DNA of 64,000 bases from a virus (taxonomy: Duplodnaviria > Heunggongvirae > Uroviricota > Caudoviricetes), in the IMG/VR virus record IMGVR_UViG_2548876947_000004, one strand, 5' to 3'. Positions 1 through 63,420 of the stretch are shown one piece after another. The notes under the pieces are model-generated. The model was not told the DNA's origin. It did not search any database and was given only the letters and a program-made list of their open reading frames with translations. Both the position numbers and the translations under genes were made by a program. Every line of letters begins with the position of its first letter. Positions within the stretch are counted from its first letter, which is position 1.

Positions 1-1413
1 CGTGCTCAACAGGGGGATCTTTTCACCGCTTGTGCCAAGTTCTCTTAAACCAAGGTATTGGATAACGGCCAGTGTGCTTGTTTTAGCCAGAATATCGCGA
101 CCGACTGACGTTAAATCAGTCTGAGCTACCGTATCCTTACCAGTGAAATAAGGCAGTTTGTTTGCACCAGTCGCAAGGGCAGCGAGAGCGGTTAAAGTTG
201 CATCCAGAGGCTGTTTGCCTGCCAGCGCATTTGTCATTGTTGTCGCAAAGTTCGGGTCATTGCCAAGTGCTGCGGCAAGCTCATTCAGGGTATCAAGAGC
301 TTCTGGTGATGAACCAACCAATGCGGATATGGCAGCTCTTACATAAGCGGTCGTAGCAATCTGCGTGTTATTCGTACCCTGTTCAGCGGTAGGCGCAGTA
401 GGTATTCCCGTTAATGCAGGACTTGCTAAAGGAGCTTTAAGAGCCAGAGCATTGTTGATAGTTGTGCTGAAATTCGGGTCGTTATTGATCGCAGCAGCTA
501 TTTCTTTAAGCGTATCCAGTGTGCCAGGTGCACCGTTGATAAGTGCCGTTATAGCTGCCTTAACAAAGGCTGTATTTGCGATCTGCGTGCTATTTGTACC
601 TTGCGCTGCCGTCGGCGCGGTTGGCGTTCCTGTCAGACTCGGGCTTTCTATTGGCGCTTTGGTATCAGCAAGATCTTTTACAGACTTAACGGCTTTAGGG
701 GTAGCCGCCATTGTTTCGCTGTCGCTGTTAGTTTCGCTACTGAGCTGAACTAATCCCTTTTGCGTTGTGCTTGCATCCTGCGCCGTATACTTGCTTTTCG
801 CCAGATCGTAGGCTTTTTTAACTGCCAGCGAACTTGCAGCAACATCACTTCTGCTACTGGTTACAGAGTCTGAAATATCAATGCCGATCGTGCGGTTAAT
901 ACGCTCGGATGTATCAATCATCTCCTGGGTAATGGCTGATACTCCAGCAGGGATATTCACCGTACAAACAAGCAGCTCCCCATCTCCTAACTGATATGAA
1001 TCGGTATAGGTTCTGGTAACAAATTCAGCCGCATGAATATGTGACGCGGTATTAACCTGATAGGTATCCTCTCCAAGGAGGTATCTTCCCTTCAGCACAA
1101 TTGCATATTTCTTACCTGCGCTAAGTGCAAGAGAAATATCCTTACGATGCTGAATAGTTACCTGGTAGAATTCACCAATATCCACTGACGCTGCGCCAGC
1201 AGTTTTATCACCATCCACAGAGGTGATTAACAGGTTCATCCCACCGCCAGGCTTAGGTAAGAAACCGGCATAAAATCCCGGGTCAACAATCCCCCTGAAT
1301 TTTCGGTTTAGCGCGGCTGACAGATATGGTTCGTGGTATTGCACATCAGCAACCAGAGCCAACGACTCGGGTGATGGGTAAGTAACCGATGTAACAACTG
1401 TAACGTCATTCAT
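1..1413 (-). CDS. S: Tail fibre protein, N-terminal (constant) part; partial, 3' end lies beyond window start
   Basis: Minus-strand ORF from ATG at 1413-1411 reads without stop to position 1 (MNDVTVVTSVTYPSPESLALVADVQYHEPYL...); contains tandem ~30-aa repeats PxLTGxPTAPTAxQGTNxTQIAxTA(F/Y)VxAAIxAL typical of myovirus side tail fibre shafts. Not in the ORF track because it has no stop in the window. Confidence 0.75.
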   Translation of the reverse strand, partial: MNDVTVVTSVTYPSPESLALVADVQYHEPYLSAALNRKFRGIVDPGFYAGFLPKPGGGMNLLITSVDGDKTAGAASVDIGEFYQVTIQHRKDISLALSAGKKYAIVLKGRYLLGEDTYQVNTASHIHAAEFVTRTYTDSYQLGDGELLVCTVNIPAGVSAITQEMIDTSERINRTIGIDISDSVTSSRSDVAASSLAVKKAYDLAKSKYTAQDASTTQKGLVQLSSETNSDSETMAATPKAVKSVKDLADTKAPIESPSLTGTPTAPTAAQGTNSTQIANTAFVKAAITALINGAPGTLDTLKEIAAAINNDPNFSTTINNALALKAPLASPALTGIPTAPTAEQGTNNTQIATTAYVRAAISALVGSSPEALDTLNELAAALGNDPNFATTMTNALAGKQPLDATLTALAALATGANKLPYFTGKDTVAQTDLTSVGRDILAKTSTLAVIQYLGLRELGTSGEKIPLLST

Positions 1414-12646: not shown

Positions 12647-12663
12647 TTAAACAAATAATGCTC
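12647..12663 (+). promoter_or_regulatory. C1 repressor operator (Op51-like) upstream of c4-icd-ant
   Basis: AATGCTCTAATAAATTT, 16/17 match to the P1 C1 operator consensus ATTGCTCTAATAAATTT. Confidence 0.7.
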
Positions 12664-12857
12664 TAATAAATTTGTCTTTTTAAGTCACGAATGCTATCTT
12701 TTCGCATCATATTGACCTTTTAATCGTTCAGGCTTATAGTTCCGCCGTCGTAGCAAATTCTGCGACCGGGTTTAGCAGCCTGAATACTTACGCGGACAAC
12801 CGCAGATTTCCGATATTGCGGTATTTTTGTGTCCGTAAACCACGTTACGCCCGAATT

Positions 12858-12940
12858 ATGGTGGGGCGTGATGGGGAGGCTTCGGCCTGCTGGTTTCGTA
12901 AGTGCCAGTCTGCTAACCCCGTCACGTCCTGCCACCTGTT
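12858..12940 (+). ncRNA. c4: c4-like antisense RNA (immI regulator), copy 1
   Basis: Between operator and icd: 10-bp closing stem (cgtgatgggg / ccccgtcacg, one G-U) around two hairpins (aggc-ttcg-gcct; ctgg-tttcgtaagtg-ccag). Loop tttcgtaagt is complementary to acttacgagg covering the icd SD at 12967-12976. Boundaries approximate. Confidence 0.45.
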
Positions 12941-12985
12941 TAGCAGCGGGTCGCAGGTTGTTTATCAACTTACGAGGCCGTAACT

Positions 12986-13207
12986 ATGGTTAATGCCAAT
13001 CCTTGCGCACGCCAAGAATTCATCTGGCGTTTCTATTCCTGTAAAAAACACCACTATCACTTCGTTATCGCAGCAACAGAAGACGAAGCACGCTCTCAAT
13101 TGCCTGATGGCCCCTGCATTTTTACTGCCCGTTTTTCAACTAACTCGCGCAATTCACTTAGTTACTGGAGCCTCCCCTTCTCTGCCGACGTTCAGGGGGG
13201 TTTATGA
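12986..13207 (+). CDS. icd: Icd-like small protein (73 aa)
   Basis: 73-aa ORF directly upstream of and overlapping (ATGA) the antirepressor gene; a second divergent copy is at 61200..61421. Confidence 0.6.
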   Translation: MVNANPCARQEFIWRFYSCKKHHYHFVIAATEDEARSQLPDGPCIFTARFSTNSRNSLSYWSLPFSADVQGGL

Positions 13208-14238
13208 AAACACCTCTCGTCACCCGTAATGAAATAGCCGAAGCGATCGCCTTGCATACTGCCTGTATGCCGACACGGGAGATCCCCGGCGCAATTGCTA
13301 ACTATTTCATGATAACCAGACGTTTTTATACCCGAACAGATAAGGCTGTGATCAACAGGCTACTGATAGCCGAGATCAGGGATTATTTGATTGAACAAGG
13401 ACGTCTACGTTACGCAACAGTGGCAGCAGAAATGAGAAAGGAGGCACATAGAATGACCGGTAATAATTTAAATGTTGAAAAACCAGCACCTGTTGCTTCA
13501 GCTACGCCAGCACCAGCCCTGAATGTCATCCCCAACACCGGAGACACAATCGACAGCCAAACATTGTTGAAGATGGTCAATGAGGCACGGAAATTATGTA
13601 GCGAAAAACCAGTTCGCAACAATGATTTCATTGCCAGAGTTAAGGATGAGCTTGAAGGAGAAACCTACGAAATTTTCGTAGGTCAAAAAAACGGCGCAGA
13701 AATAGATATTATAACCATGACCTACAAACAAGCCCTGCGAGTTGCCGCGCGCGAGTCAAAAGCGGTCCGCCGTTCGCTGATCGACAAACTGGAAGAATTA
13801 CAGCAGGCAAACTCCCCTACCCCATCGATCCCCAAGACATTACCAGAAGCCCTACGCCTGGCTGCCGAGTTAGCAGAACAGAAAATGCAGTTGGAACAAC
13901 AGCTGGTGGCCGCAGCCCCTAAAGTCGATTTTGCCGACCGGGTATCAGTGGCCAATGGAATCCTGATCGGGAACTTTGCAAAGGTCGTTGGACTTAAGCA
14001 AAACGCCCTTTTCTCATGGTTGCGCCAGAACGGCATTCTCATGGCTTTTGGTGCGCGCAAAAACGTACCGCGCCAACAGTACATCAACGCCGGGTATTTC
14101 ACGGTGAAAGAAGTTGTGCTGGATGATGAAAATGGCTACCAGATACGGCTGACGCCCCAATTAACGGGTAAAGGCCAGCAGTGGTTAACTCGCAAGCTAC
14201 TTGATGCTGGTTTGTTAAAACCAGTAGCAATAGGTTAA
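13204..14238 (+). CDS. ant: Antirepressor Ant (344 aa)
   Basis: C-terminal ~140 aa (...LPEALRLAAELAEQK...PKVDFADRVSVA...GKGQQWLTRKLLDAGLL) is the conserved phage antirepressor C-terminal domain; immI context. Confidence 0.7.
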   Translation: MKTPLVTRNEIAEAIALHTACMPTREIPGAIANYFMITRRFYTRTDKAVINRLLIAEIRDYLIEQGRLRYATVAAEMRKEAHRMTGNNLNVEKPAPVASATPAPALNVIPNTGDTIDSQTLLKMVNEARKLCSEKPVRNNDFIARVKDELEGETYEIFVGQKNGAEIDIITMTYKQALRVAARESKAVRRSLIDKLEELQQANSPTPSIPKTLPEALRLAAELAEQKMQLEQQLVAAAPKVDFADRVSVANGILIGNFAKVVGLKQNALFSWLRQNGILMAFGARKNVPRQQYINAGYFTVKEVVLDDENGYQIRLTPQLTGKGQQWLTRKLLDAGLLKPVAIG

Positions 14239-14250
14239 CAAAAGAAAAAA

Positions 14251-14277
14251 ACCTGCCAGCAAACTGGCAGGTTTCTG
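14251..14277 (+). terminator. Intrinsic terminator after ant
   Basis: acctgccag-caaa-ctggcaggt hairpin followed by T-rich tract. Confidence 0.5.
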
Positions 14278-14402: not shown

Positions 14403-15203
14403 ATGCAACAAACATTCAATGCGGATATGAATATATCAAACCTTCATCAAAATGTCGATCCTTCAACCACTCTGCCCGTTATTTGTGGTGTTGAAATTAC
14501 GACCGACCGCGCTGGCCGTTACAACCTTAATGCTCTACACAGAGCGAGCGGACTCGGTGCCCATAAAGCGCCAGCTCAATGGCTAAGAACGCTGTCAGCT
14601 AAACAGCTCATCGAAGAGCTTGAAAAAGAAACTATGCAGAATTGCATAGTTTCGTTCGAAGGCCGTGGCGGCGGCACTTTTGCCCATGAATTGCTCGCAG
14701 TGGAGTACGCTGGTTGGATTTCTCCCGCGTTTCGGCTGAAGGTAAACCAGACATTTATCGACTATCGAGCTGGAAGATTACAACCTGCTATTCCGAAGAG
14801 CCTCCCAGAAGCTCTCCGTTTGGCTGCCGACCTGGCAGAGCAAAAGCAACGGCTGGAGCAAAAAATGCTGATGGATGCACCTAAAGTCGAATTCGCCGAA
14901 CGCGTTGCTACCGCCAGCGGGGTTCTAATCGGCAACTATGCCAAAGTGCTCGGCCTGGGCCAAAACTATCTCTTCACCTGGTTGCGTGATAACGGAATTC
15001 TGATCGCAACCGGTGAACGCAGGAACGTCCCCAAACAAGAATACATATCCCGTGGGTATTTCACCCTTAAAGAAACCGTGATCGATACAAGCAATGGAAG
15101 CAGGATTTCTTTCACGACTCGTATAACCGGCAAAGGTCAGCAGTGGCTGATGAAGCGATTGCTTGATGCTGGTGTGCTGGTACCTGTCGCGGCAACGCGC
15201 TAA
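14403..15203 (+). CDS. kilA: KilA (KilA-N-like N-terminus fused to antirepressor C-terminal domain, 266 aa)
   Basis: C-terminal domain paralogous to Ant (...IPKSLPEALRLAADLAEQK...GKGQQWLMKRLLDAGVL); position upstream of repL. Confidence 0.6.
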   Translation: MQQTFNADMNISNLHQNVDPSTTLPVICGVEITTDRAGRYNLNALHRASGLGAHKAPAQWLRTLSAKQLIEELEKETMQNCIVSFEGRGGGTFAHELLAVEYAGWISPAFRLKVNQTFIDYRAGRLQPAIPKSLPEALRLAADLAEQKQRLEQKMLMDAPKVEFAERVATASGVLIGNYAKVLGLGQNYLFTWLRDNGILIATGERRNVPKQEYISRGYFTLKETVIDTSNGSRISFTTRITGKGQQWLMKRLLDAGVLVPVAATR

Positions 15204-16374: not shown

Positions 16375-16497
16375 TACAATCGTTGCGGGTGCTTGAGGCT
16401 ATCTGCTTCAGGCATTACCCGAAAAGCAGATAGAAGAAAGCCCCAGATAACATTACGCGTCCTGCAAGACGCTTAACATTAATCTGAGGCCATATCT

Positions 16498-16704
16498 ATG
16501 CTTAGCATACGTAGATTAGCCTCTTACCGACCAAAAGGTCAAGGAGAAGCAGGCTATGAAGCAGCAAAAAGCGATGTTAATCGCTCTGATCGTCATCTGT
16601 TTAACCGTCATTGTGACGGCACTGGTAACGAGGAAAGACCTCTGCGAGGTACGAATCCGAACCGGCCAGACGGAGGTCACTGTCTTCACAGCCTACGAAT
16701 CTGA
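16498..16704 (+). CDS. mok-like overlapping reading frame of the hok locus
   Basis: 68-aa ORF overlapping the hok-like gene in another frame, as in hok/mok/sok loci. Confidence 0.3.
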   Translation: MLSIRRLASYRPKGQGEAGYEAAKSDVNRSDRHLFNRHCDGTGNEERPLRGTNPNRPDGGHCLHSLRI

Positions 16705-33582: not shown

Positions 33583-33658
33583 GATGGTGTAGCTCAGTGG
33601 TTAGAGCGGTTGACTGTTAATCAACGGGTCGATGGTTCAAATCCATCCACCATCGCCA
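33583..33658 (+). tRNA. tRNA-Asn (anticodon GTT)
   Basis: Cloverleaf folds by hand: acceptor GATGGTG/CACCATC, D-arm GCTC-AGTGGTTA-GAGC, anticodon loop CTGTTAA, T-arm GATGG-TTCAAAT-CCATC, discriminator G, CCA encoded. Confidence 0.85.
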
Positions 33659-33660
33659 AT

Positions 33661-33736
33661 GCCGGTTTAGCTCAGTTGGTAGAGCGCCTGCCTTGTAAGC
33701 AGGATGTCAGCGGTTCGAGTCCGTTAACCGGCACCA
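33661..33736 (+). tRNA. tRNA-Thr (anticodon TGT)
   Basis: Acceptor GCCGGTT/AACCGGC, D-arm GCTC-AGTTGGTA-GAGC, anticodon stem CCTGC/GCAGG with loop CTTGTAA, T-loop TTCGAGT, CCA encoded; 2 nt after tRNA-Asn. Confidence 0.85.
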
Positions 33737-35180: not shown

Positions 35181-35256
35181 GGCCCCTTAGCTCAGTGGTT
35201 AGAGCTGGCGACTCATAATCGCACGGTCACCGGTTCAAGTCCGGTAGGGGCCACCA
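35181..35256 (+). tRNA. tRNA-Ile2-like (anticodon CAT, lysidine type; could alternatively be read as Met)
   Basis: GGCCCCTTAGCTCAGTGGTTAGAGC...CTCATAA...GGTTCAAGTCC...AGGGGCCACCA closely resembles bacterial tRNA-Ile(CAU) as I recall it; one mismatch at the top of the anticodon stem. Confidence 0.75.
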
Positions 35257-58182: not shown

Positions 58183-59376
58183 GTGACCTGGGACGATCAC
58201 AAGAAGAATTTTGCTCGCCTGGCGCGAGATGGTGGTTACACCATCGCACAGTATGCCGCCGAGTTTAATCTTAACCCTAATACTGCACGTCGTTATCTCC
58301 GTGCCTTCAAAGAAGACACCAGGACAGCGGACAGCCGCAAGCCAAATAAGCCAGTCAGGAAGCCACTAAAAAGCATGATCATTGATCACTCTAATGATCA
58401 ACATGCAGGTAATCACATTGCGGCTGAAATAGCGGAAAAACAAAGGGTTAATGCCGTTGTCAGTGCCGCAGTCGAGAATGCGAAGCGCCAAAATAAGCGC
58501 ATAAATGATCGTTCTGATGATCATGACGTGATCACCCGCGCCCACCGGACCTTACGAGATCGCCTGGAACGCGACACCTTGGATGATGATGGTGAACGCT
58601 TTGAATTCGAAGCTGGCGATTACCTGATAGATAACGTTGAAGCGCGGAAGGCCGCGCGCGCTATGTTGCGTCGGTCCGGGGCCGATGTTCTGGAAACCAC
58701 TCTTCTGGAAAAGTCTCTTTCTCATCTCCTTATGCTGGAGAACGCCAGGGATACGTGTATTCGCCTGGTGCAGGAAATGCGCGATCAGCAAAAAGACGAT
58801 GATGAAGGTACTCCGCCTGAATACCGTATCGCGAGCATGCTAAACAGCTGTTCCGCGCAGATAAGCAGTCTGATCAACACCATTTACAGCATCCGGAATA
58901 ACTATCGAAAAGAAAGCCGGGAGGCGGAAAAGCACGCTTTATCTATGGGGCAAGCTGGCATTGTTAAGCTGGCATACGAACGAAAGCGTGAAAATAACTG
59001 GTCAGTGCTGGAAGCAGCTGAATTCATCGAGGCGCATGGCGGGAAAGTGCCGCCCCTGATGCTGGAGCAAATCAAAGCCGATCTGCGTGCTCCTAAGACC
59101 AATACCGATGATGAGGAAAGGCAAACAGCCGTCGGTGGCCCTTCTCTTGAAGATCTGGACAAAGTTGCGCGAGAACGGGCCGCCAACCGCCGCGCCGATG
59201 CCGCATTGTGGATTGAGCAGCGTAGGGAAGAAATCGCCGATATCGTTGATACAGGCGGTTATGGAGATGTTGATACTGAAGGTGTATCAAACGACCCATG
59301 GCTGGAACAAGACCTGGACGAAGACGAGGAGGAAGACGAAGAAGTTACCCGCAAGCTATACGGGGATGATGATTAA
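58183..59376 (+). CDS. pacA: Terminase small (pac-recognition) subunit (397 aa)
   Basis: Contains the pac-type hexamer clusters internally; acidic C-terminus; followed by overlapping large subunit. Confidence 0.75.
58377..58534 (+). promoter_or_regulatory. pac packaging site: two clusters of TGATC(A/G) hexamers
   Basis: TGATCA x3 at 58377-58400 and TGATCG/TGATCA/TGATCA at 58506-58534, each containing a Dam GATC site, about 105 bp apart inside pacA. Confidence 0.6.
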
Positions 59377-60860
59377 TGGCCAGAAGTTGCGTAACGGATC
59401 CTCGTTGGCGCGAGCTGGTGGCGCTATATCGTTATGACTGGATTGCTGCCGCTGATGTTTTGTTCGGCAAAACACCTACCTGGCAGCAGGATCTGATTAT
59501 TGAGTCTGTGCAGGAACAGGGTAGCAAGACATCTGTTTCGTCTGGTCACGGTACCGGGAAATCAGACATGACTTCTATCATGATCATGTTGTTCATAATC
59601 ATGTATCCCGGTGCCCGCGCCATTATCGTTGCGAACAAAATTCAGCAGGTAATGACCGGTATATTCAAGTACATCAAGATAAACTGGGCTACTGCCACCA
59701 GCCGTTTTCCATGGCTTGCTGATTATTTTGTTCTGACAGAAACCGCTTTCTATGAGGTTACTGGTAAAGGTGTATGGACTGTAGTACCGAAGGGCTTTCG
59801 TCTGGGAAGTGAAGAAGCTCTCGCCGGTGAACACGCAGATCATCTTCTGTATATTATCGATGAAGCCTCCGGTGTCAGTGATAGAGCTTTCGGTATCATC
59901 ACCGGTGCTCTTACCGGACAGGATAACCGCATCTTATTGCTGTCACAGCCTACACGCCCAAGCGGCTATTTCTACGATACTCACCATAAACTGGCCAAGC
60001 GTCCTGGTAACCCTGATGGCGTTTATACGGCGATCACGCTTAACAGTGAGGAATCACCGCTGGTAACGCCAGCATTTATCAAAATGAAGCTGGCGGAGTA
60101 CGGCGGGCGCGATAACCCTATGTACATGATTAAGGTACGCGGCCTATTCCCTAAATCACAGGATGGCTTCCTTCTTGGACGTGATGAGGTTGAACGTGCA
60201 ACGCGGCGGAAAGTCAAGATTGCCAAAGGATGGGGCTGGCTTGCATGTGTGGACGTTGCTGGTGGTACGGGAAGGGATAAGTCCGTTATCAATATCATGA
60301 TGGTGTCCGGCCAGCGAAACAAACGCCGTGTAATCAACTATCGAATGCTGGAATACACAGACGTTACAGAAACGCAGCTTGCCGCCAAAATTTTCGCAGA
60401 ATGTAATCCTGAGCGATTCCCCAATATCACCATAGCGATAGATGGCGATGGCCTGGGTAAAGCAACAGCGGATCTGATGTACGAGTATTATGGTATTACC
60501 GTACAGCGTATACGCTGGGGTAAAAAGATGCATAGCCGTGAAGATAAGAGCCTGTACTTTGATAAACGTGCTTATGCCAACGTTAAAGCCGCAGAGGCCG
60601 TAAAATCTGGTCGTATGAGACTGGATAAGGGTAATGAAACTATTGAGGAAGCGTCGAAAATCCCTGTAGGGATTAACTCCGCAGGTCAATGGAAGGTGAT
60701 GAGTAAGGAGGATATGAAGAAAAAACTCAACCTGCACTCACCAGACCATTGGGATACATATTGTTTCGCTATACTGGCGGATTATGTTCCCCAGGATGAA
60801 GTGCTTAGCGTCGAAGACGAAGCGCAGGTTGATGAAGCTCTGGCATGGCTTAATGAATGA
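59376..60860 (+). CDS. pacB: Terminase large subunit (494 aa)
   Basis: ATG overlaps the pacA stop; Walker-A-like SGHGTGKS; terminase-like acidic motifs. Confidence 0.8.
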
Positions 60861-60865
60861 ATATT

Positions 60866-60882
60866 TGCTCTAATAAATTGTG
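60866..60882 (+). promoter_or_regulatory. C1 operator upstream of the second c4-icd-ant-like module
   Basis: TTTGCTCTAATAAATTG, 15/17 match, 5 bp after the pacB stop. Confidence 0.65.
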
Positions 60883-61059
60883 TTTTTTAGCTGCCGATGT
60901 TACATTGAACCTGACCTCTTGCGCCTTGAGGCATTTTCGGTTTATGCTTATCAGGCACCTCATTAAAACGGGTGCCGGGATTGGCCTCCCGCTTAAGTCT
61001 AAGGCGATACAGACGCCGCTCGCGTCTTTTTTTTGTATCGGCGTACACGCACACCTCTA

Positions 61060-61140
61060 CAATGGTGGGCTGTATGGGGCTACCTTCGGGTAGGCTGGTT
61101 ACCTTGGACGCCAGTAAGGCCAACTCCGTACAGTCCACCG
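61060..61140 (+). ncRNA. c4-like antisense RNA, copy 2 (divergent sequence, same architecture)
   Basis: Closing stem ctgtatgg/ccgtacag around hairpins ctacc-ttcg-ggtag and ctgg-ttaccttggacg-ccag; loop ccttggacg is complementary (9 bp, one G-U) to cgtctaagg covering the SD of the downstream icd-like gene (61180-61188). Confidence 0.4.
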
Positions 61141-61199
61141 CCAGCAAGATTGGTCTCTTCTGCGGTGGTTACATACCAACGTCTAAGGAGGCTGCCAAT

Positions 61200-61421
61200 A
61201 TGGCTACTATCCCTACCCCAACTCATCCTGAATTTATCTGGCGCTTTTACTCCTGCCAAAAACGTCACTATCACTTCGTTATTGCACCAACAGAAGATGA
61301 GGCCCGCTCTCAGCTTCCTGACGCCCCATGTATTTTCTCTGCCCGTTTTTCCACTGATTCACGCAATTCTCTCAGTTACTGGTGCCTCCCTGTTAACGCT
61401 TCTGCTCAGGAGGGACTATGA
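61200..61421 (+). CDS. Icd-like small protein, copy 2 (73 aa)
   Basis: MATIPTPTHPEFIWRFYSCQKRHYHFVIAPTEDEARSQLPD... is paralogous to the 12986..13207 product; SD AAGGAGG. Confidence 0.55.
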   Translation: MATIPTPTHPEFIWRFYSCQKRHYHFVIAPTEDEARSQLPDAPCIFSARFSTDSRNSLSYWCLPVNASAQEGL

Positions 61422-62536
61422 GAACGTCATTAGTCACCCGTGAAGAGATGATCGAGGCAATTGAACAGCACACTGCCTGTATCAGTACCAGGGATATACC
61501 AGGCGTTATTGCCAACTACTTCATGATCACCAAACAACTTTACCGGAGAAAGGACAAGAACGCGGTTCACCGTATCCTGTTGTCTGATATCCGCGAATAC
61601 CTGCTCGAACAGGGTCATCTGAATTACGCAACCGTCGCAGCCGAAGCACGCAAGGAGGCACACAGAATGAAAGCAACTAACGTTAAATCAGAAAAAATTC
61701 ATGCACCTTCAGTTCAGGAATCGGAGCTGGTGGTTGTTCAGAATCAGTCTGATGAAATTCCCGTTCTGGAATGGCAGGGAGTGCGTGTAGTGACAACCGA
61801 GACTCTTGCTAGAGGGTATGGGACAGAAACAATCCGTATTCGCCAAAATCATCATGAGAACAAAGTACGCTTTGTTGAAGGGAAGCACTTTTTCAAAGTT
61901 GAAGGAGAATCATTGCGCGAGTTGAAGCACAGAGTAGCTTTAAACTACTCTGTAAAAATTGCTCGCAATGTTCGCTCACTCACCCTCTGGACAGAACGCG
62001 GCGCAGCCCGCCACGCTAAAATGCTCGAAACCGATCAGGCATGGGCATTCTTTGAAAAACTGGAAGACAGCTACTTCCGACAAAAAGAACAGCAACCGAT
62101 CGCAATCCCCCAGACGCTTCCTGAAGCCCTACGCCTGGCTGCCGAACTGGCTGAACAAAAGCAACTTCTGGAACAGAAAGCCCACCAGCTAAATCAGCAG
62201 CTGGTGGCCGCCGCTCCTAAAGTCGATTTTGCCGACCGGGTATCAGTAGCTAAAGGGATCCTGATTGGGAATTTTGCAAAGGTTGTTGGACTTAAGCAAA
62301 ACGCGCTGTTTGTCTGGTTACGGGAGAACGGCATCCTGATAGCGTCCGGTGGACGTAAAAATGTGCCGTTCCAGCAGTACATCAACGCGGGGTATTTCAC
62401 GGTGAAAGAAGTGGTGCTGGATGATGAAGATGGCTACCAGATACGGTTGACGCCTCAATTAACGGGTAAAGGCCAGCAGTGGTTGACGCGTAAACTGCTC
62501 GATGCTGGCTTGTTAAAACCGGTGGCAGCTGAATAA
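61418..62536 (+). CDS. Antirepressor paralogue (372 aa) with Rha/ORF6N-like middle domain
   Basis: N-terminal ~85 aa and C-terminal ~140 aa paralogous to Ant at 13204..14238; the central region differs. Confidence 0.65.
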   Translation: MRTSLVTREEMIEAIEQHTACISTRDIPGVIANYFMITKQLYRRKDKNAVHRILLSDIREYLLEQGHLNYATVAAEARKEAHRMKATNVKSEKIHAPSVQESELVVVQNQSDEIPVLEWQGVRVVTTETLARGYGTETIRIRQNHHENKVRFVEGKHFFKVEGESLRELKHRVALNYSVKIARNVRSLTLWTERGAARHAKMLETDQAWAFFEKLEDSYFRQKEQQPIAIPQTLPEALRLAAELAEQKQLLEQKAHQLNQQLVAAAPKVDFADRVSVAKGILIGNFAKVVGLKQNALFVWLRENGILIASGGRKNVPFQQYINAGYFTVKEVVLDDEDGYQIRLTPQLTGKGQQWLTRKLLDAGLLKPVAAE

Positions 62537-62549
62537 TGGAAGAATGCCC

Positions 62550-62580
62550 GGTTGATGCCGGGCATAATTTATTGCGCGCT
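62550..62580. terminator. Bidirectional terminator between convergent antirepressor and c1
   Basis: atgcccgg-ttgatg-ccgggcat hairpin with A/T-rich flanks. Confidence 0.5.
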
Positions 62581-63420
62581 TTCGGGGTTGTCGTTTACTG
62601 GCTGCCCCTTCTTGGTTTTACGGCTGCGCGTAACTGATGCGGCTGACTTAACCTTTTTCTCTTCGCGAGTGATGGCAATTTGTTTTTTTACATTTTCAAT
62701 ATCTGCCAGGCGATATATTTTTGCTTGCGGCCAGCGGTCGCAGATGATCGGTTCTATGGAGTCATAAAGGCTAAATTTTGCTTTTTCGAATTCACCGTTG
62801 ATGATAATTCCATCACGGAGAGTTTCATCGCAGATAAACACGCCACACAGTGGCACATGGTAACTAACTGATTTACCATCATTGTAGTTAGGGCTACTGG
62901 AAATGTAGTGGACGCGCAGCATTGTTTCGCTAAAGCCGTGTACGCGCATACGGAATTTTTCATCCTCCGGGTACTGCCTCATTAGCTCTTTTGTTGCTTC
63001 CAGGTTCTCTATGTATTTCGCACTGTGCTCATTGATCCCCGCGCTTTTTTGGATGCGAATGTCCTTATCAATCAGATGAATAATGCGGCCAGCGGTCATG
63101 TTGACGCTGTTCACAGCTTCTGTCTGATAAGTTGTAACCTTGCGCACACCGCGAAGGATGTTAGGCACTGGATATAAAATAGTCTTTGGGATATTGAGGT
63201 CTGGGTACTGTTCCAGTTCCCGCGCCATTAAAGTCCATTTATCAATTTCAGCCTGAATGCTGTCAGTTTCTTTGAACGGTAGAACGACAACCGGGCGTAC
63301 AGGACGACCGTCGCTGGCTGTATCAACGTGTTGGGCGCGTGCAACAGCTTTTTTTAGAAAGAGATCCCTGAAGCTGACGAACTCCTGGTACAGTTGTTCG
63401 CCGTAGACATAATTTATCAT
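62569..63420 (-). CDS. c1: Primary immunity repressor C1 (283 aa)
   Basis: MINYVYGEQLYQEFVSFRDLFLKKAVARAQHVD... matches my recollection of P1 C1; cognate operators are abundant in the window. Confidence 0.9.
   Translation of the reverse strand: MINYVYGEQLYQEFVSFRDLFLKKAVARAQHVDTASDGRPVRPVVVLPFKETDSIQAEIDKWTLMARELEQYPDLNIPKTILYPVPNILRGVRKVTTYQTEAVNSVNMTAGRIIHLIDKDIRIQKSAGINEHSAKYIENLEATKELMRQYPEDEKFRMRVHGFSETMLRVHYISSSPNYNDGKSVSYHVPLCGVFICDETLRDGIIINGEFEKAKFSLYDSIEPIICDRWPQAKIYRLADIENVKKQIAITREEKKVKSAASVTRSRKTKKGQPVNDNPESAQ

Follow-up and report, generated by a model that had tools for sequence, protein, structure and literature searches.

In this work, we have used computational approaches to analyse two immunity loci of a P1-like phage-plasmid, which is represented here by a stretch of 64,000 nucleotides (nt) from the IMG/VR record IMGVR_UViG_2548876947_000004 (Caudoviricetes), referred to as the window. 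Our results show that the window holds two modules, each of which contains, in order, a C1 operator, a leader with the sites a1 and b1, a C4 RNA, a 73-amino-acid (aa) icd gene and an antirepressor gene of the KilAC type. Judging from their sequences, both modules are probably functional anti-immunity cassettes of the immI type, each with an RNA specificity of its own. The sequence architecture, the RNA folds, the complementarity between the RNAs and their targets, the covariation of these sites among relatives and the purifying selection on the genes can all be observed directly. In both loci the closest record to the window is the E. coli plasmid NZ_CP103764, with 99.3–99.5% identity.

The original prediction, made from the letters of this DNA alone, had proposed two immI-type modules, one in the canonical place before kilA-repL and the other between pacB and c1. 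A Rfam C4 match, an icd gene, a KilAC ant gene and a C1 operator were found at each of the two places, so located by the list of open reading frames (ORFs) and by annotated relatives, and the immI-type reading holds at the sequence level, since both loci have the sequence features of a c4-icd-ant cassette. Module 1 occupies the canonical immI position, between the sim region and kilA-repL and upstream of the latter, and is 94–98% identical to P1, P7 and RCS47; measured against the immI operon of P1 and P7, the identity is 94–95%. Module 2 lies outside the interval from the sim genes to kilA-repL: it is a 1.7-kb segment filling the gap from the stop codon of pacB to the convergent c1 gene, a gap of only 24 nt in P1, P7 and SJ46. 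We regard module 2 as a widespread and partly annotated second immI-type cassette, of IsrK/C4 lineage, on a P1 backbone.

Architecture and folding of the two modules

Module 1 is the immI operon known from P1 and P7 (Op51, P51a/b, c4, icd, ant1/ant2), in the same position; its features, like those of module 2, are on the plus strand unless stated. The C1 operator (12657–12673), the homolog of P1 Oc4/Op51, was placed by its position relative to the annotated P1 operator and has the exact core TGCTCTAATAAATT at 12659. A predicted sigma-70 promoter, TTGACC-17-TATAGT (12712–12740), matches the consensus in 10 of 12 positions in a promoter scan and aligns with the annotated P1 promoter P1c4/P51b. 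The a1/b1 leader (12734–12793) was identified by the Rfam family c4-a1b1 (RF03163; 12734–12786, 56.2 bits against a gathering score of 46.7), by alignment to the annotated a1/b1 of P1 and by its fold, with a1 (TTAGCAG, 12772–12778) in a hairpin loop and b1 (ACTTACGC) at 12786–12793. The c4 antisense RNA (12860–12936), 77 nt long as is the annotated c4 of P1, is homologous to those of P1 and P7 and is covered by a Rfam C4 match (RF01695; 12854–12939, 70.8 bits against a gathering score of 45); its b' loop is UUCGUAAGU (12895–12903) and its a' is CUGCUAA (12910–12916). The targets (12940–12977), assigned by alignment to annotated P1 a2/b2 and by duplex energies, are a2 (TTAGCAG, 12940–12946) and b2 (ACTTACGAGG, 12968–12977), which overlaps the Shine-Dalgarno sequence of icd. 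Both protein genes come from the ORF list and from P1 annotation: icd (73 aa, 12986–13207) and ant1 (344 aa, 13204–14238), whose product is also recognised by Pfam KilAC and PHROG 63. They overlap by ATGA (13204–13207), and an in-frame ant2 start, ATG at 13453, is immediately preceded by AGGAGG.

In module 2, the C1 operator (60864–60880) begins 4 nt past the pacB stop codon, carries the same exact core (60866–60879), aligns with Op51 of P1 and P7 and is conserved in RCS47 and JL22; over the whole window, 15 C1-operator-like sites with at most two mismatches were counted against 0.83 expected by chance. The leader RNA that follows (60955–61035) is of the IsrK type according to Rfam (isrK, RF01394; 60955–61032, 60.8 bits against a gathering score of 50), the terminator scan, the fold and the duplex energies. 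Like IsrK it folds into three hairpins, and the last is an intrinsic terminator (61011–61035, a hairpin at 61011–61027 and then a T run). The c4-a1b1 motif gave no match in module 2 at the gathering threshold; both sites are nonetheless present, a1 (TTGGCCT, 60981–60987) in the loop of hairpin 2 and b1 (GTCTAAGG, 60997–61004) in the linker. Next comes a 79-nt c4-like antisense RNA (61064–61142), supported by Rfam C4 (RF01695; 61058–61145, 75.9 bits against 45), by homology to annotated P1 and P7 c4 and by its fold, with the b' loop UACCUUGGACG (61100–61110; b' element CCUUGGAC(G)) and a' AAGGCCAA (61116–61123). The targets (61150–61191), assigned by duplex energies and by three-way covariation among alleles, are a2 (TTGGTCT, 61150–61156) and b2 (CGTCTAAGGAGG, 61180–61191), which again overlaps the icd Shine-Dalgarno sequence. 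The icd paralog (73 aa, 61200–61421; ORF list, homology, PHROG 1426) and the antirepressor gene (372 aa, 61418–62536; ORF list, Pfam ORF6N and KilAC) share an ATGA junction at 61418–61421, and an in-frame internal ATG at 61667 also has AGGAGG just before it.

Compared with P1/P7 immI, module 2 is thus alike in the order of its parts, the RNA fold, the a/b recognition logic, the ATGA coupling and the nested ant1/ant2 starts, and unlike in its pacB–c1 site, its IsrK-type leader with a strong terminator, its own 79-nt c4 scaffold and the ORF6N centre of its Ant. Module 2 had been described as the same architecture with a divergent sequence; the shared layout stands, although the module is not simply a diverged copy, its IsrK-leader type being related to cassettes of lambdoid prophages. 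The elements b' and b2 had been recognised in both modules, while a' and a2, the upstream copies a1 and b1 and the IsrK-type leader of module 2 had been missed.

All six sites (a1, b1, a', b', a2 and b2) occur in each module, and both c4 RNAs take the Y shape of P1 and P7 c4 in minimum-free-energy (MFE) and centroid folds. A long closing stem carries two hairpins, with b' in the loop of the second and a' single-stranded on its 3' side, so that b', the loop whose exposure the original prediction required, and a' are both exposed in the two RNAs. The MFE is –45.7 kcal/mol (z = –5.2) for module 1 and –41.8 kcal/mol (z = –4.1) for module 2, and in neither case did any of 200 shuffled sequences fold as well. 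In the ensemble, opening a' or b' costs 0.0–0.7 kcal/mol in either RNA.

The gene order of immI (c4, icd, ant1/ant2), with the ATGA overlap of icd and ant and the nested in-frame ant starts, was found at both loci. Over 63 aligned residues (positions 11–73) the Icds of the two modules are 81% identical; that of module 2 also aligns with P1 Icd and falls in PHROG 1426, and by this homology it is a putative Icd-like cell division inhibitor. Both Ants match Pfam KilAC (PF03374; 106.3 and 107.9 bits against a cut-off of 25.3, with an E-value of 1.3e-30 for the Ant of module 1) and the anti-repressor Ant family PHROG 63 (E-values 2e-102 and 1e-131). The second Ant is a mosaic, 56% identical to Ant1 overall, in which the N-terminal 85 aa, the part specific to Ant1, are about 64% identical and the KilAC C-terminus about 92% (both counted from the alignment). 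Since it has an Ant1-like N-terminus and KilAC, C1 is its most likely target on the sequence evidence. The KilA protein (KilA-N plus KilAC; 14403–15203, plus strand) shares with both Ants the C-terminal KilAC, including the motif PEALRLAA(E/D)LAEQK, and the element therefore encodes three KilAC proteins.

Pairing specificity and its variation among relatives

Pairing was compared through the energies of loop-only duplexes, which were used in place of whole-RNA duplexes. The own b'/b2 pair gave –10.1 kcal/mol in module 1 and –11.3 kcal/mol in module 2, and the range over four systems (P1, P7 and the two modules) was –10.0 to –11.3 kcal/mol. Cross pairing was weaker, –3.9 kcal/mol for the c4 of module 1 on the target of module 2 and –7.6 kcal/mol for the reverse; P1 and P7, an experimentally heteroimmune pair, gave –4.7 and –5.0 kcal/mol against each other. 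The claim that neither loop matches the target of the other module is therefore borne out by these values. The loops on which it was based had been quoted correctly (uuucguaagu, 12894–12903; ccuuggacg, 61102–61110), and so had the target cgucuaagg at 61180–61188, while acuuacgagg lies at 12968–12977, one position to the right of the 12967–12976 originally given.

Alignment shows that module 1 combines a P7-type a' with a b', CGUAAGU, that is absent from both P1 and P7, and this combination, found in neither phage, therefore makes it a third immI specificity. Since neither a' nor b' is shared between the two modules, each c4 RNA should silence its own cassette only; the two circuits should, by computation, be orthogonal.

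A single site by itself is only modestly improbable as a product of chance. The b'/b2 energy was matched by 3 of 5000 dinucleotide shuffles in module 1 and by 120 of 5000 (2.4%) in module 2, and the a'/a2 energy of module 2 was matched by 25% of shuffles. When four sites were considered jointly, none of the 5000 shuffles matched either module. Other ways of scoring were tried and discarded. RNAduplex, run on the full c4 and the leaders, returned –30 to –66 kcal/mol whatever the pair, which is uninformative, as intramolecular structure is ignored. Dimer MFE folding gave about 0 for all pairs, including the established P1 pair, because loop-to-strand (pseudoknot-like) contacts cannot be represented. 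A MAFFT alignment of ten c4 sequences was one column out of register in hairpin 2, between 77-nt and 79-nt scaffolds, and for this reason stem pairs were counted directly on sequences of equal length.

The covariation that had been proposed as a check was then sought among relatives, in a sample of 96 c4 copies (19 distinct sequences) from named phages, GTDB genomes and IMG/VR contigs. These contain 16 a'/b' alleles, and in every allele a1, b1, a2 and b2 match, so that all the target sites co-vary. The P1-type scaffold carries at least 5 b' and 2 a' alleles in the sample; the IsrK-type scaffold carries 4 b' and 4 a' alleles, with 2 more b' alleles in chromosomal primase islands (at least 6 b' in total). 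Across alleles, own b'/b2 pairs gave –10.0 to –11.5 kcal/mol, compared with a mean of –4.7 kcal/mol (n = 228) on targets of a different b allele. At the pacB–c1 locus itself, the window, RCS47 and JL22 each hold a different allele, with changes that are co-ordinated across three sites in every case, and among the 27 stem pairs of the module 2 c4 RNAs of the window and RCS47 there are 9 compensatory pairs and no broken one. In comparisons with RCS47 and JL22, the ratio of nonsynonymous to synonymous substitution rates (dN/dS) of module 2 is 0.02–0.06 for icd and about 0.35 for ant; the second icd and the second ant are intact and under purifying selection. Taken together, the allele covariation, the compensatory pairs and the purifying selection count against both chance and a decaying insertion.

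Chromosomal IsrK-c4-icd cassettes were also seen in islands with primase or DUF5906 genes, in E. coli W284 (excerpt L099, 1925–2003) and in O157:H7 E32511 (excerpt L100, 1902–1980). These two cassettes have the c4 scaffold and the a' of module 2 and different b' sequences (CCUUGAUU and CCUCUAAC, respectively), each with matching b1 and b2. The a' is common to plasmid and chromosomal cassettes, and therefore half a specificity could be shared.

How are the cassettes combined in nature? The search for Icd relatives yielded 6 loci in genome contigs and, in IMG/VR, was taken from the best 80 of 247 hits; the resulting table of co-residence is a sample, not a census. Fifteen elements or genomes in it have at least two modules, and 11 of the 15 (RCS47, JL22, D6 and 8 others) pair one module of the a1b1 type with one of the IsrK type. 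Alleles are freely reassorted among the multi-module elements, some of which hold at least three modules, and modules appear to accumulate. The IMG/VR genome 2698536372 has four c4 copies on a 42-kb viral contig (excerpts L022, L088 and L094), two of which (in L022) are IsrK-type RNAs of the same sequence, separated by 1.6 kb, and a fifth copy on a second contig (L080). A contig of IMG 651053023 (L082/L089) has two back-to-back P1-type modules with the same a' and different b'. Phage D6 resembles the window in having one c4-icd-ant module of the c4-a1b1 type and one of the IsrK type, and differs from it in that its modules adjoin repL and ref/pmgF and its antirepressors are shorter and of the Roi/Rha type; its alleles are a P1-type a' with CGUAAGU (the b' of module 1) and GUCUCAA with CCUUUUGC.

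Proposed mechanism, alternatives and the link to IsrK

The usual account of P1 immunity has three parts (immC, immI, immT) and only one c4 specificity, which separates P1 from P7 and sets their heteroimmunity. The immI operon of these phages has a constitutive promoter, P51b, and a C1-controlled one, P51a; c4 is cut from its transcript by RNase P; Rho-dependent polarity acts within icd in P1; and P1 Ant1/Ant2 forms a complex with C1 and inactivates it. We propose that in each module of the window transcription would start downstream of the C1 operator, so that a leader RNA with a1/b1 is made first, followed by the Y-shaped c4 RNA and then by icd, which would be translationally coupled through ATGA to an antirepressor of the Ant1/Ant2 type. 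Processed c4 would pair through its b' loop with b2 and through the single-stranded a' with a2; since b2 covers the icd Shine-Dalgarno sequence, this pairing would block icd translation and thereby prevent the coupled synthesis of Ant, and C1 would stay active and lysogeny be kept. The a1/b1 leader may be a decoy competing for c4. In module 2 the leader would be an IsrK-family decoy for its own c4 that stops at its own intrinsic terminator, and read-through past this terminator would supply c4, icd and ant. Competition of a1/b1 with a2/b2 for c4 is a proposal of Citron and Schuster, as quoted in the supplement of Weinberg 2010.

A layout like that of module 2 is found in Salmonella prophage Gifsy-1 at isrK-orf45(STnc1160)-anrP: isrK with its terminator, a C4 RNA and an antirepressor gene with b2 over its Shine-Dalgarno sequence. 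In Gifsy-1 (NC_010392, 34131–34329, minus strand) Rfam places isrK, an overlapping c4-a1b1 and a C4 RNA (69 bits) in tandem; the C4 match coincides with 'orf45'/STnc1160, and its b' is complementary to AATCACCGGAGG at the Shine-Dalgarno sequence of anrP. Gifsy-1 is unlike module 2 in being without icd, in having a 45-codon ORF that overlaps the c4 region and is coupled to anrP, in its unrelated antirepressor and in its a'/b' alleles. Only for Gifsy-1 is IsrK known as a small RNA (sRNA) that binds Hfq and, in trans, turns on translation of the antirepressor encoded behind it; there, a processed RNA of about 80 nt complementary to IsrK was reported, IsrK in trans raises anrP translation 139-fold, AnrP derepresses prophage genes, and the published model is an IsrK-triggered switch of mRNA structure, not titration of c4 (Hershko-Shalev et al. 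2016, PMC4825925). From the Rfam layout of the locus, IsrK appears to be a leader with a1/b1 that serves a c4 module as its decoy. No searchable paper draws this link at Gifsy-1; C4 and IsrK, which have been kept separate in that literature, are now connected, and the connection gives a simple and testable decoy model for IsrK.

Our broader hypothesis, which we offer tentatively and rate at somewhat below even chances, is that a combinatorial, multi-locus RNA immunity code operates in P1-like phage-plasmids, in which at least two c4/ant circuits are co-resident, a' and b' reassort independently among them and IsrK-family sRNAs act as terminated a1/b1 decoys (sponges). If so, heteroimmunity would be a comparison of the resident's whole set of c4 RNAs with the invader's set of ant cassettes, and the corollary on IsrK would reinterpret the published Gifsy-1 mechanism. 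If both circuits of the window work as predicted, a resident plasmid would silence the ant of incoming relatives with either specificity, and an incoming phage with both modules would escape any lysogen that is without one of its two c4 types; the circuits would set which phage-plasmids superinfect, displace and induce one another. Such rules of superinfection and displacement bear on the spread and stability of phage-plasmids, and many pacB plasmids carry resistance genes. Both loci are highly allelic. The finding of the second cassette makes natural heteroimmunity among P1-like phage-plasmids directly testable.

Several observations weigh against two functional cassettes, and we consider them together here. 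Transcription, RNA processing and repression are what we infer for both modules; that the second Ant binds C1, and that the circuits have an ecological effect, we likewise infer. No promoter of module 2 reached the threshold of the promoter scan, and its positional homologs of P51a and P51b match the consensus in only about 7–8 of 12 positions (counted by eye). Opening the targets costs 2–11 kcal/mol in the arbitrary 80-nt excerpts used, so that net pairing energies are small, model-dependent and weakly discriminating. There may also be a weak, one-way cross-talk of module 2 c4 onto P1-type icd: the a' of module 2 holds the palindrome GGCC, which is also present in the GAGGCCGU Shine-Dalgarno region of module 1 icd (12974–12981) and of P1 and P7 icd, and its 4-bp GGCC pairing with the GAGGCC Shine-Dalgarno region of P1-type icd gives a predicted hybrid of –8.8 kcal/mol. 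Lastly, the second Ant has in its centre an ORF6N domain that bears no relation to the centre of Ant1, and therefore the target of this protein might not be C1.

This last point leads to the alternative to which we give most room, though we think it unlikely: module 2 would be controlled by its c4, and its antirepressor would act on a target other than C1, for example a repressor made by a lambdoid prophage or a satellite residing in the same cell, which would make the second circuit a means of cross-talk between mobile elements and not a second P1 immI specificity. Besides the ORF6N centre, it is favoured by the distribution of the IsrK plus C4 front end, which has matches of about 78% identity in 168 phage records, typically of Stx-converting and other lambdoid phages, which recurs in Gifsy-1 before an antirepressor that derepresses prophage genes (PMC4825925), and whose scaffold and a' are found with other b' alleles in the chromosomal primase islands. 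Against it stand the Ant1-specific N-terminal 85 aa, the Ant2-type internal start and the KilAC shared with P1-type Ant, as well as the exact C1 operator in front of module 2; moreover, only the RNA front end is common to the Stx-phage cassettes, the protein encoded downstream in them being unrelated to the second Ant. For the same reason, a whole transfer of module 2 from an Stx-phage cassette was rejected.

That module 2 is an insertion which was acquired and is now inert or decaying, with a complementarity inherited from its source, would agree with the absence of the module from P1, P7 and SJ46, which manage with a 24-nt gap, with the lack of a strong predicted promoter and with the labelling of part of the module as a pseudogene in RefSeq. 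We consider it improbable, because both ORFs are intact with dN/dS below 1, because the module is kept in about half of the pacB-bearing plasmids, and because several alleles are found at pacB–c1, each co-ordinated at three or four sites, changes which therefore require continued selection on pairing. The pseudogene label lies over the RNA genes and most probably reflects an error of annotation: RefSeq/PGAP places an incomplete 'ash family protein' pseudogene, with no non-coding RNA feature, at 60857–61175 of the window (358–675 of the excerpt from NZ_CP048917), over the IsrK-like leader and the c4 RNA, and sets the same label over homologous chromosomal cassettes; it is probably a systematic mis-annotation of the RNA locus. 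As for chance matches between two unrelated hairpins and ribosome-binding sites, the individual sites are indeed short (7–10 nt), and in module 2 the b'/b2 and a'/a2 energies are each reached by some of the shuffles, as described above; the joint result for the four sites in each module, Rfam covariance-model scores 25–30 bits over threshold and the perfect covariation across 16 alleles have already refuted this explanation. We thus favour two functional immI-type cassettes over these alternatives.

Distribution and neighbouring features

A search of P1-like genomes for a c4-icd-ant module between pacB and c1, the further check that had been proposed, found it in the phage records RCS47, JL22 and vB_EcoM-673R5 and in 270 plasmids of PLSDB, where pacB-module 2-c1 was matched over at least 80% of the query. 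In the same database pacB was found in 558 plasmids and module 1 in 438, which puts the second module in about half of the pacB-bearing plasmids, and among 5426 complete E. coli genomes 249 have the dual arrangement. The insertions of RCS47, JL22, vB_EcoM-673R5 and pTZ20_1P are at pacB–c1, as in the window, and are 91–99% identical to module 2; RCS47 and JL22 differ from the window in their c4 alleles at this locus, and their c4-like and IsrK-like RNAs are unannotated there. Among the phage records compared, P1, P7, SJ46 and phiW39 do not have the pacB–c1 module. The notion that two c4/ant circuits in one element are unknown from P1 is hence correct for P1 and P7 themselves and incorrect for the group, in which RCS47, JL22, vB_EcoM-673R5, D6 and hundreds of plasmids have them. 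Published mentions of the arrangement are only passing ones: Venturini et al. 2019 (PMC6906374) pointed out an extra ant gene with two small ORFs between pacB and c1, and the D6-like plasmid pYU39_89 was recorded as having a second c4/icd region (PMC6799933); in the searchable literature we found no analysis of the specificity of the second c4 and no experiments on it. The dual arrangement is therefore common in natural relatives of P1 and partly annotated, and is not a new kind of system.

A secondary immunity region is also known from phage P22, whose immI is alike in that an antisense RNA (sar) limits antirepressor synthesis, ant being under the control of Mnt, Arc and sar. It is unlike c4 in that sar is an unrelated cis-antisense transcript, not a co-transcribed, trans-acting hairpin RNA, and in its protein regulators.

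Module 2 is flanked on the left by pacB (59376–60860, plus strand) and on the right by the c1 repressor gene (62569–63420, minus strand), both taken from the ORF list and the annotation of relatives, and the terminator scan placed a terminator-like hairpin between its ant and the convergent c1 (62544–62565, plus strand). In module 1 the same scan found a G+C-rich, terminator-like hairpin after ant (14247–14276, no strand assigned). Between b1 and c4 of module 1, at 12810–12830, a terminator-like hairpin (CCGCAGAUUUCCGAUAUUGCGG, then UAUUUUUGU) ends the P1-type leader; it was missed by the scan because its loop is 12 nt long, and its position is equivalent to that of the IsrK terminator. The P1-type and IsrK-type leaders look homologous in architecture.

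Elsewhere in the window, a Rfam match to the sok antitoxin RNA lies just 3' of repL (16387–16561, plus strand) and scores a strong 114.9 bits, the gathering score being 59; it points to a hok/sok-type addiction module downstream of that gene; we know of no such module at this place in P1. Three tRNA genes, the ordinary cargo of P1-like phages, are on the plus strand at 33583–33655, 33661–33733 and 35181–35253, with Rfam scores of 66–76 bits.

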